Virus record (IMG/VR): IMGVR_UViG_2740892229_000007
DNA length: 4,967 bases
Direction: 5' to 3' (one strand)
Origin: a virus
Taxonomy: Duplodnaviria > Heunggongvirae > Uroviricota > Caudoviricetes
Positions 3-4,967 of this stretch are shown one piece after another. Both the position numbers and the translations under genes were made by a program. The first letter of the stretch is position 1. Each line of letters opens with the position of its first letter. Under the pieces are notes generated by a model. The model was not told the origin of the DNA. It worked only from the letters and a program-made list of their open reading frames with translations, and ran no database searches.

Positions 3-750
3 TCCCGTATCTGCTGGGATACTGGCGGGATTGACCCGACCATTGTGTATGAACGCTCGAAAAAGCATGGGCTGTTCCGGGTGATCCCCATTAAAGGGGC
101 ATCCGTCTACGGAAAGCCGGTGGCCAGCATGCCACGTAAGCGAAACAAAAACGGGGTTTACCTTACCGAAATTGGTACGGATACCGCGAAAGAGCAGATT
201 TATAACCGCTTCACACTGACGCCGGAAGGAGATGAACCGCTTCCCGGTGCCGTTCACTTCCCGAATAACCCGGATATTTTTGATCTTACCNNNNNNNNNN
301 CGGTACGGATACCGCGAAAGAGCAGATTTATAACCGCTTCACACTGACGCCGGGAGGGGATGAACCGCTTCCCGGTGCCGTTCACTTCCCGAATAACCCG
401 GATATTTTTGATCTTACCGAAGCGCAGCAGCTGACTGCTGAAGAGCAGGTCGAAAAATGGGTGGATGGCAGGAAAAAAATACTGTGGGACAGCAAAAAGC
501 GACGCAATGAGGCGCTCGACTGCTTCGTTTATNNNNNNNNNNAAAAAAAATACTGTGGGACAGCAAAAAGCGACGCAATGAGGCGCTCGACTGCTTCGTT
601 TATGCGCTGGCGGCGCTGCGCATCAGTATTTCCCGCTGGCAGCTGGATCTCAGTGCACTGCTGGCGAGCCTGCAGGAAGAGGATGGTGCAGCAACCAACA
701 AGAAAACACTGGCAGATTACGCCCGTGCCTTATCCGGAGAGGATGAATGA
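3..750 (+). CDS. A: Terminase large subunit (lambda gpA-like), C-terminal portion; 5' end lies outside the window; coding path broken by N runs
   Basis: In-frame translation of three blocks: 3-290 (codons start at 3), 302-532, 544-750. Gives ...[174 protein letters not shown], stop TGA 748-750. Matches the lambda gpA C-terminus as I recall it. Blocks 302-418 and 543-603 are redundant re-reads. Confidence 0.85.
291..300. other. Gap: run of 10 N (block junction 1/2)
   Basis: 10 consecutive n; sequence after the gap re-reads 174-290. Confidence 0.99.
302..418 (+). repeat. Redundant near-identical re-read of 174-290 (gpA region)
   Basis: Aligned by eye; differs at gaa->gga (E->G, 225-227 vs 353-355) and gga->ggg (synonymous). 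Confidence 0.9.
533..542. other. Gap: run of 10 N (block junction 2/3)
   Basis: 10 consecutive n; sequence after the gap re-reads 472-532. Confidence 0.99.
543..603 (+). repeat. Redundant near-identical re-read of 472-532 (gpA region)
   Basis: Aligned by eye; only the first base differs (g->a, consistent with agg->aga Arg synonymous). Confidence 0.9.
736..742 (+). promoter_or_regulatory. Probable Shine-Dalgarno (GGAGAGG) for gpW, embedded in the 3' end of the terminase gene
   Basis: GGAGAGG at 736-742, 4-nt spacer to ATG 747. Spacer is short, so the call is tentative. Confidence 0.5.
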
Positions 751-950
751 CGCGACAGGAAGAACTTGCCGCTGCCCGTGCGGCACTGCATGACCTGATG
801 ACAGGAAAACGGGTGGCAACGGTACAGAAAGACGGACGGCGAGTGGAGTTTACGACCACTTCCGTGTCTGACCTGAAAAAATACATTGCTGAGCTGGAAG
901 TGCAGACCGGCATGACACAGCGACGCAGGGGACCTGCAGGATTTTATGTA
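747..950 (+). CDS. W: Head completion / head-tail joining protein (lambda gpW-like), 68 codons; stop codon lost in the N run at 951-960
   Basis: ATG at 747 overlaps the gpA stop (ATGA, 747-750). Translation [75 protein letters not shown] at 736-742 upstream. Confidence 0.9.
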
Positions 951-3578: not shown

Positions 3579-4967
3579 TCTCCCGCATATTGCCAGCATG
3601 GCTTTTAATGAGCCGCTGATGCTTGAACCCGCCTATGCGCGGGTTTTCTTTTGTGCGCTTGCAGGCCAGCTTGGGATCAGCCGCCTGACGGATGCGGTGT
3701 CCGGCGACAGCCTGACTGCCCAGGAGGCACCCGCGACGCTGGCATTATCCGGTGATGATGACGGACCACGACAGGCCCGCAGTTATCAGGTCATGAACGG
3801 CATCNNNNNNNNNNAGTATCCGGCGACAGCCTGACTGCCGGAGAGGCACCCGCGGCGCTGGCGTTATCCGGTGATGATGACGGACCACGACAGGCCCGNN
3901 NNNNNNNNATCCGGCGACAGCCTGACTGCCGGAGAGGCACCCGCGGCGCTGGCGTTATCCGTTGATGATGACGGACCACGACAGGCCCGCAGTTATCAGG
4001 TCATGAACGGCATCGCCGTGCTNNNNNNNNNNGAGTTATCAGGTCATGAACGGCATCGCCGTGCTGCCGGTGTCCGGTACGCTGGTCAGCCGGACGCGGG
4101 CGCTGCAGCCGTATTCGGGAATGACCGGTTACAACGGCATTATCGCCCGTCTGCAACAGGCTGCCAGCGATCCGATGGTGGACGGCATTCTGCTCGATAT
4201 GGACACACCGGGCGGGATGGTGGCGGGAGCATTTGACTGTGCTGACATCATCGCCCGTGTGCGAGACATAAAACCGGTATGGGCGCTGGCCAACGACATG
4301 AACTGCAGTGCAGGTCAGCTGCTTNNNNNNNNNNGATGACCGGTTACAACGGCATTATCGCCCGTCTGCAACAGGCTGCCAGCGACCCGATGGTGGACGG
4401 CATTCTGCTCGATATGGATACGCCAGGCGGGATGGTGGCAGGGGCATTTGACTGCGCTGACATCATCGCCCGTGTGCGTGACATAAAGCCGGTATGGGCG
4501 CTGGCCAACGACATGAACTGCAGTGCAGGTCAGCTGCTTGCCAGTGCCGCCTCCCGACGTCTGGTCACGCAGACCGCACGGACAGGCTCCATCGGCGTCA
4601 TGATGGCTCACAGTAATTACGGCGCTGCGCTGGAGAAANNNNNNNNNNTGACATGAACTGCAGCGCAGGTCAGCTGCTTGCCAGTGCCTCCTCCCGGCGT
4701 CTGGTCACGCAGACCGCCCGGACAGGCTCCATCGGCGTCATGATGGCTCACAGTAATTACGGTGCTGCGCTGGAGAAACAGGGCGTGGAAATCACGCTGA
4801 TTTACAGCGGTAGCCATAAGGTGGATGGCAACCCCTACAGCCATCTACCGGATGATGTCCGGGAAACATTGCAGTCCCGGATGGATGCAACCCGCCGGAT
4901 GTTTGCACAGAAGGTGTCGGCATATACCGGCCTGTCCGTGCAGGCTGTGCTGGATACCGAGGCTGCA
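3559..4967 (+). CDS. C: Prohead protease / minor capsid protein C (lambda gpC-like, S49 SppA-type peptidase family); 3' end outside the window; interrupted by 5 N runs and redundant blocks
   Basis: GTG start at 3559, 6 nt downstream of GAGGAGG (3546-3552), overlapping the gpB 3' end by 20 nt. In-frame pieces: 3559-3804, 3816-3898, 3910-4022, 4034-4324, 4336-4638, 4650-4967. Translation (M)[53 protein letters not shown]...SYQVMNGIAVLPVSGTLVSRTRALQPYSGMTGYNGIIARLQQAASDPMVDGILLDMDTPGGMVAGAFDCADIIARVRDIKPVWALANDMNCSAGQLLASA...GSIGVMMAHSNYGAALEKQGVEITLIYSGSHKVDGNPYSHLPDDVRETLQSRMDATRRMFAQKVSAYTGLSVQAVLDTEAA. Confidence 0.9.
3805..3814. other. Gap: run of 10 N (block junction 12/13)
   Basis: 10 consecutive n; sequence after the gap re-reads 3696-3779. 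Confidence 0.99.
3815..3898 (+). repeat. 84-bp block that re-reads 3696-3779 (gpC region); second allele
   Basis: gtg->gta synonymous; cag->gga (Q->G), acg->gcg (T->A), gca->gcg synonymous. Confidence 0.9.
3899..3908. other. Gap: run of 10 N (block junction 13/14)
   Basis: 10 consecutive n; sequence after the gap re-reads 3699-3804. Confidence 0.99.
3909..4014 (+). repeat. Redundant re-read of 3699-3804 (gpC region); third allele
   Basis: As block 3815-3898 plus ggt->gtt (G->V) at 3961-3963. Confidence 0.9.
4023..4032. other. Gap: run of 10 N (block junction 14/15)
   Basis: 10 consecutive n; sequence after the gap re-reads 3990-4022. Confidence 0.99.
4033..4065 (+). repeat. Redundant re-read of 3990-4022 (gpC region)
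   Basis: 33-bp overlap, identical apart from the first base. Confidence 0.85.
4325..4334. other. Gap: run of 10 N (block junction 15/16)
   Basis: 10 consecutive n; sequence after the gap re-reads 4120-4324. Confidence 0.99.
4335..4539 (+). repeat. Redundant re-read of 4120-4324 (gpC region)
   Basis: All differences found by eye are synonymous (gat->gac, gac->gat, aca->acg, ccg->cca, gcg->gca, gga->ggg, tgt->tgc, cga->cgt, aaa->aag). Confidence 0.9.
4639..4648. other. Gap: run of 10 N (block junction 16/17)
   Basis: 10 consecutive n; sequence after the gap re-reads 4509-4638. Confidence 0.99.
4649..4778 (+). repeat. Redundant re-read of 4509-4638 (gpC region)
   Basis: agt->agc, cga->cgg, gca->gcc, ggc->ggt synonymous; gcc->tcc (A->S) at 4689-4691. 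Confidence 0.9.
4881..4967 (+). CDS. nu3: Nested in-frame start of a capsid scaffolding protein (lambda Nu3-like) inside the gpC reading frame; 3' partial
   Basis: In-frame ATG at 4881 (SRMDATRRMFAQKV...) at the position where lambda nu3 initiates inside gene C (about codon 239 of C). Call rests on known lambda gene organisation; no strong Shine-Dalgarno is visible upstream. Confidence 0.5.
   Translation, partial: MDATRRMFAQKVSAYTGLSVQAVLDTEAA

Follow-up and report, generated by a model that had tools for sequence, protein, structure and literature searches.

The Caudoviricetes record IMGVR_UViG_2740892229_000007 of IMG/VR presents a stretch of 4,967 nucleotides (nt; hereafter the window) in which the head genes of a lambda-like phage seem to be written several times over, in segments that overlap and differ slightly from each other. 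This raises the question of what the repeated segments are. An earlier reading made from the letters alone (the sequence-only reading) had noted that the differences are mostly synonymous and had taken the segments for redundant copies in one molecule, evolving independently and functional under purifying selection, and neither sequencing errors nor decaying prophage remnants. The observation was confirmed in the present analysis, and the interpretation was partly supported. The window is very probably a scaffold made by a de Bruijn graph assembler with a k-mer length (k) of 61 from several near-identical lambda-like prophage head modules, and what look like redundant copies are alternative arms of the assembly graph laid side by side.

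The window consists of 17 blocks of 61-458 nt, split by 16 runs of N, each of exactly 10 N. In a direct-repeat search, each block after the first repeated the end of an earlier block with 92-100% identity. The overlap with the earlier block was 61-205 nt for each of the 16 post-buffer blocks, and the true gap is negative at every buffer; hence, the constant 10 N is a floor value and not an estimate of distance. There are 20 overlapping block pairs, comprising the 16 overlaps counted in the sequence-only reading and the non-adjacent pairs in triple-covered regions. Three haplotypes are directly visible in two triple-covered regions (blocks 5/6/7 and blocks 11/12/13).

Against 80 phage records and 3,040 Escherichia coli records, the whole window aligned as 17 pieces onto one place of 3,133 base pairs (bp) with ~98.4% identity. 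Phages with this place include Escherichia phage 2H10 and Stx1a-converting phages. All 17 blocks mapped ungapped, collinear, and sorted by reference start, with indels in 0 blocks. Since all blocks map in order onto one locus, 3,133 bp of real sequence has been inflated to 4,967 bp. The blocks and buffers are listed below; reference coordinates (ref) are those of 2H10 (NC_049950; locus L001), with a mapped span of 1501-4633.

Block 0, 1..290 (+), ref 1501-1790: terminase large subunit gpA, nuclease domain; ends 60 nt past the variant at window 230.
Block 1, 301..532 (+), ref 1673-1904: gpA; 118-nt overlap with block 0; starts on a T/C variant and ends 60 nt past the variant at ref 1844.
Block 2, 543..950 (+), ref 1844-2251: 3' end of gpA (stop 748-750) and gpW (start 747); starts on a variant and ends 60 nt past the variant at ref 2191.
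Block 3, 961..1308 (+), ref 2140-2487: 3' part of gpW (stop 1073-1075) and start of portal gpB (ATG 1072); ends 60 nt past the variant at ref 2427.
Block 4, 1319..1715 (+), ref 2406-2802: portal; starts on a variant and ends 60 nt past the variant at ref 2742.
Block 5, 1726..2070 (+), ref 2728-3072: portal; starts on a variant and ends 60 nt past the variant at ref 3012.
Block 6, 2081..2162 (+), ref 2922-3003: portal, third haplotype of a triple-covered region; ends 60 nt past the variant at ref 2943.
Block 7, 2173..2560 (+), ref 2937-3324: portal; ends directly before the variant at ref 3325 (fork).
Block 8, 2571..3028 (+), ref 3138-3595: portal; the longest block (458 nt), mosaic; ends 60 nt past ref 3535.
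Block 9, 3039..3099 (+), ref 3325-3385: portal; 61 nt, a single k-mer (length = k); starts on a C/T variant and ends 60 nt on.
Block 10, 3110..3348 (+), ref 3512-3750: portal; starts on a variant (GTT/GCT) and ends 60 nt past the variant at ref 3690.
Block 11, 3359..3804 (+), ref 3633-4078: 3' end of the portal gene (stop 3576-3578) and start of gpC (GTG 3559); ends 60 nt past the variant at ref 4018.
Block 12, 3815..3898 (+), ref 3970-4053: gpC N-terminal region; ends directly before the variant at ref 4054 (fork); exact match to natural locus L110.
Block 13, 3909..4022 (+), ref 3973-4086: gpC N-terminal region; its sole difference from block 12 is G/T (Gly/Val), and it ends 60 nt past that variant.
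Block 14, 4033..4324 (+), ref 4054-4345: gpC, S49 peptidase domain; exact match in 12 panel loci, all of the type of Shiga toxin-producing E. coli (STEC).
Block 15, 4335..4638 (+), ref 4141-4444: gpC, S49 domain; 304 nt, mosaic.
Block 16, 4649..4967 (+), ref 4315-4633: gpC, S49 domain; continues past the window end.
10-N buffers: 291-300, 533-542, 951-960, 1309-1318, 1716-1725, 2071-2080, 2163-2172, 2561-2570.
10-N buffers, continued: 3029-3038, 3100-3109, 3349-3358, 3805-3814, 3899-3908, 4023-4032, 4325-4334, 4639-4648.

The genes under the 3,133-bp place are the 3' end of the terminase large subunit gene gpA, gpW, the complete lambda-family portal gene gpB, and the first 800 nt of the gpC/Nu3 S49 peptidase/scaffold gene. 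In L001 and a second natural locus, L002, the gene map is terL 126-2051, gpW 2048-2254, portal 2251-3852, and S49 3833-5152. The window blocks are collinear with the gene order and with the start/stop overlaps of annotated lambda-like phages. Pfam profiles were run on the collapsed path of the window and gave GpA_nuclease at 86.7 bits (cut-off 22.5), gpW at 126.7 (22.5), Phage_portal_2 at 323.9 (32.9), and Peptidase_S49 at 118.6 (24.9). In genes, gene order, gene overlaps, and nucleotide identity, the window matches the lambda-like head module known from 2H10, Stx1a-converting phages, and STEC lambdoid prophages. There is no biological difference from this module; the window merely shows several alleles of it, interleaved with N buffers. 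E. coli genomes carry up to 7 places per genome that match the head module.

The block boundaries identify the process that produced this layout. All 16 blocks after the first start on a base not shared with the sibling block (chance, ~2e-22), and 13 of the 16 block ends lie exactly 60 nt past a site that is variable in the window (chance, ~1e-15). Both probabilities were computed with 4.4% of the multiply covered positions variable, i.e., 65 of the 1,470 reference positions that are covered two or three times. The counts of end offsets peak sharply at 60; the next-best offset has a count of 6, and most offsets have counts of 0-3. The ends of blocks 7 and 12 lie directly before a variable site, as at a fork. 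The remaining end, that of block 8 at ref 3595, is 60 nt past ref 3535. This site is variable in natural sequences: among them, L002 and L107 are closest to block 8 elsewhere but carry another base here. The independent natural panel first comprised 82 sequences, made up of 80 loci from IMG/VR plus two annotated records, and was later widened to 106 and then to 110 loci. The shortest block, block 9, is made of a variant base and the 60 nt that follow it. Such boundaries are the mark of a de Bruijn graph with k=61 whose nodes were output minus the k-1 prefix. A node of this kind opens with the final base of the first k-mer past a fork and closes once the last k-mer containing its private variant is written, or at the next fork.

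Six block ends also lie 81 nt past a variable site, besides the peak at 60. The 81-nt offset is probably due to variable sites that stand 21 nt apart (e.g., ref 2406/2427 and ref 2922/2943). Three block pairs (3 vs 4, 14 vs 15, and 15 vs 16) end at a merge yet still differ from the visible sibling within the last 60 nt. Merging despite these remaining differences requires further haplotypes that are absent from the scaffold. Blocks 3 and 4, for instance, still differ at ref 2476, inside the last 60 nt of block 3, and this implies the existence of a third haplotype outside the scaffold.

The differences between overlapping blocks were then characterized. The 65 variable sites are all substitutions, with 51, 9, and 5 at codon positions 3, 1, and 2, respectively (78% at position 3). 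The ratio of nonsynonymous to synonymous divergence (dN/dS) was calculated by the Nei-Gojobori method on non-redundant codon comparisons. With complete codons only, 42 synonymous (Sd) and 11 nonsynonymous (Nd) differences gave a dN/dS of 0.076 (bootstrap 95% confidence interval 0.03-0.14; binomial P for synonymous excess, 3e-17). When the sibling block was used to fill in the codons at block starts, Sd was 53, Nd was 12, dN/dS was 0.065, and P was 3e-22. Because overlaps are present only around variant sites, the proportion of synonymous differences (pS, 0.12-0.14) overstates the true divergence; the ratio is unaffected. No stop in the annotated frame and no frameshift was found in any block. 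The window is coding sequence with the pattern of purifying selection, a dN/dS well below 1 (~0.07) without stops or frameshifts, and on these points the sequence-only reading was right. Its examples were also sound in substance. All 10 differences between 4335-4539 and 4120-4324 are synonymous, and the TTG/CTG difference at 1389-1391 is as described. The CGC/CGT difference is real but had been placed at 1326-1328, 12 nt from its true position at 1338-1340 (CGC) versus 1246-1248 (CGT).

The nonsynonymous differences are concentrated in the N-terminal region of gpC, before the S49 domain (window 3721-3752 and its copies at 3840-3871 and 3931-3962). The changes are CAG/GGA (Gln/Gly), ACG/GCG (Thr/Ala), and GGT/GTT (Gly/Val). 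Both alleles of each change are common in the natural panel, and the T allele of block 13 at the Gly/Val site was found in 17 of the 82 panel sequences. This cluster looks like a naturally variable linker.

A low dN/dS had been read as a sign that the copies are functional, and this step did not hold. Over the same 3,133 bp, 78 distinct natural haplotypes had a median pairwise dN/dS of 0.062 (interquartile range 0.049-0.075), with 72% of polymorphic sites at codon position 3 compared with 78% in the window. The window dN/dS of 0.065-0.076 is indistinguishable from this natural background. Because it equals the background polymorphism across E. coli prophages, the low ratio reflects long-term constraint on the lambdoid terminase, portal, and protease genes, and it says nothing specific on the function of the copies in this sample. 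Nor does the exclusion of decaying prophage remnants follow. The block 6 haplotype sits in a portal pseudogene of E. coli O26 RM10386 (L105 2330-4378), in which the portal gene is truncated after ~1,029 nt. The truncated portal gene is directly followed by Mu-like mom and com genes, and on both grounds this prophage copy is rearranged or decayed.

The alleles themselves are found in nature. Both alleles were present in the 82-sequence panel at 59 of the 65 variable sites. Of the alleles that the panel lacks, two are in block 6, and at least 420 complete E. coli genomes, STEC for the most part (O157:H7, O26, and O103), contain this block with 100% identity. Among the genomes listed with an exact block 6 (mostly STEC), the match occurs at 1-5 places each, and at 2-5 in most. 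After STEC sequences had been added, only the bases at window 230 and 2467 were still unseen, and both were matched at 100% in a single prophage of STEC strain 2013C-4991, as well as in other genomes. Block 0 coincides with that prophage (L109) along its full 290 nt, and blocks 6 and 12 are identical to a second prophage of the same strain. Across the window, 3,760 of 3,787 61-mers (99.3%) occur in the 110 natural loci, and a greedy cover of the window needed about four major natural haplotypes. The differences between overlapping blocks are real alleles. As a side observation, in L109, the prophage with the exact match to block 0, the region just upstream of the terminase genes (198-491) contains an iss (increased serum survival) lipoprotein gene and a frameshifted copy of rzpD.

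The sequence-only reading had named differences massed at block ends or at homopolymers as the mark of error. A concentration was indeed found, at all 16 block starts, and it is due to assembly-graph forks; an error-like homopolymer pattern was not found. The sole difference that adjoins a homopolymer is the G/A at the start of block 2 (AGG/AGA; window 472-480 vs 543-551), where an A run becomes longer. With 4 of the 82 panel sequences carrying the A allele, this difference is natural and not a homopolymer error.

Taken as the origin of the window, a k=61 assembly would have worked as follows. The sample would have held at least 3-4 related copies (~93-99% identical locally) of the gpA-gpW-gpB-gpC module, most likely as several lambdoid prophages in one STEC-type E. 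coli genome. The graph would fork wherever two copies differ, and a node would run from the fork base to 60 nt (k-1) past its last private variant, or up to the next fork. The scaffolder would order the nodes but thread no single path through them. Nodes appended without the k-1 prefix and separated by a minimum-length 10-N buffer would then give rise to apparent redundant copies. Lambdoid terminase, portal, and protease genes evolve under strong long-term purifying selection and swap segments by recombination, and this is why the differences are mostly synonymous.

Known systems of both kinds resemble the window. Scaffold tangles of Velvet/Pebble share with it the fixed N buffers between truly overlapping nodes, the nodes that run from a fork base to k-1 past a variant, and the minimum node length of k. 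The Pebble/Velvet paper describes N buffers between scaffolded nodes, which are appended as though a path had been found; a 10-N floor is not given there. The co-resident lambdoid prophages of STEC (O157:H7, O26, O103, and others) include exact matches to blocks 0, 6, 9, 12, and 14. Such strains carry several near-identical structural modules per genome, some copies of which are truncated remnants. In contrast, the long blocks of the window match none of the sequenced STEC prophages end to end.

Several points weigh against the assembly explanation or parts of it. The assembler and k were deduced from the block pattern, which points to a Velvet/Pebble-like program. The source code of Velvet sets a minimum buffer of 10 N, a value that was not confirmed in the literature searched. 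A string across an N-buffer junction was unmatched in viral, genome, and metagenome collections, where it is not established whether such scans match literal N; the junction pattern does match in the window itself. The mosaic long blocks could be real recombinants, which would have the same appearance. Lastly, no single complete genome examined explains all blocks; two of the three copies in 2013C-4991 were compared, and each matches only 2 blocks exactly.

The last point also bears on the source of the haplotypes. They might come from a mixture, such as a metagenome, a virome, or a mixed culture of E. coli strains or phages, through the same graph and scaffold mechanism. The natural haplotypes that best cover the window are of unrelated origin (an STEC stool isolate, IMG/VR prophages, and E. 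coli from chicken meat), which speaks for a mixture. However, single E. coli genomes already carry as many as 7 matching places, and one STEC genome combines the rare alleles of blocks 0, 6, and 7, spread over two different prophages. Scaffolding by paired-end distance through such a tangle is typical of isolate assemblies, and the junction and block 15 strings were unmatched in the metagenome collection. A mixture is therefore the main alternative, though a rather improbable source, and a single isolate appears to fit better.

The long blocks pose a second question. Full-length exact matches were lacking for 11 of the 17 blocks in the 106-sequence panel, though their 61-mers are natural; block 0 later matched 2013C-4991 exactly. 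Among 5,426 complete E. coli genomes, no exact match was found for block 8 (458 nt; best 99.3%) or for block 15 (304 nt; best 99.0%), and a 198-nt piece of block 15 had no match in the viral, metagenome, and species-representative genome collections. Every 61-mer of blocks 8 and 15 is natural. Block 8 tiles into an L002-like segment of 397 nt followed by an L001-like segment of 61 nt, and all long blocks can be composed from 2-3 segments of natural haplotypes, joined across stretches beyond the phasing reach of k=61. This pattern suggests that the long blocks are graph-path chimeras, as would result from graph simplification or bubble popping. That blocks such as 8 and 15 are true, unsampled recombinant alleles, i.e., new mosaic lambdoid head modules from recent recombination between co-resident prophages, is unlikely. 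Either way, the long blocks do not cleanly sample copies that evolve independently. Because blocks of 61-458 nt cannot be phased and the long ones are mosaics, the integrity of the open reading frames of each copy is not readable from the window.

It is doubtful that another tool ordered contigs or reads against a reference and joined them by 10-N spacers. The blocks are sorted by reference start, as such a tool would leave them, and some contig-ordering scripts likewise insert spacers of a fixed 10 N. Normal contigs or unitigs, however, keep the k-1 prefix; they would start 60 nt before a variant and measure at least 121 nt, whereas the blocks start on the variant and can be as short as 61 nt. 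Prefix-less nodes fit the Pebble description of nodes appended as if a path had been found. Overlapping raw reads were rejected as an origin, as the block starts and stops are set by variants.

Sequencing or assembly errors at contig ends are hardly credible: the mismatching base that opens every block after the first superficially resembles such error, but all 16 block-start alleles are present in the natural sequences examined, no indels occur, the sole homopolymer-adjacent difference is in the panel, the bias towards codon position 3 is unlike random errors, and almost all 61-mers recur in independent genomes; with the alleles natural, sequencing error was rejected, as the sequence-only reading had held. 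Equally implausible are physically redundant, partly duplicated segments in one replicon, each an independently evolving functional copy: the close identity of the overlapping segments and their in-frame, mostly synonymous differences would suit this, but a 10-N buffer lies at every copy junction, with no contiguous sequence across any of them, the blocks tile in strict order a single-copy locus that the 3,040 E. coli records show once, at 3,133 bp and without tandem repeats, the boundaries obey a k=61 rule not expected from biology, and fragments of this size are each too short to be a functional gene copy. A genuine tandem or segmental duplication was accordingly ruled out by the N junctions, the single-copy locus in relatives, and the k=61 boundaries.

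With the window read as a k=61 scaffold of several prophage head modules, the chief value of the finding is in quality control. A collapsed multi-copy prophage region in a short-read scaffold can be recognized by N runs of a fixed 10 N whose flanks overlap. Annotation as genes, repeats, or paralogues should be avoided for such apparent duplications, and the region here is in truth 3,133 bp long rather than 4,967. The k-1 offset test, in which blocks start on a variant and end k-1 past a variant, offers quick detection of the artefact and recovers the k of the assembler. For the phages themselves, the window involves no departure from known biology: that E. coli, especially STEC, carries several near-identical, recombining, and constrained lambdoid head modules is textbook knowledge.

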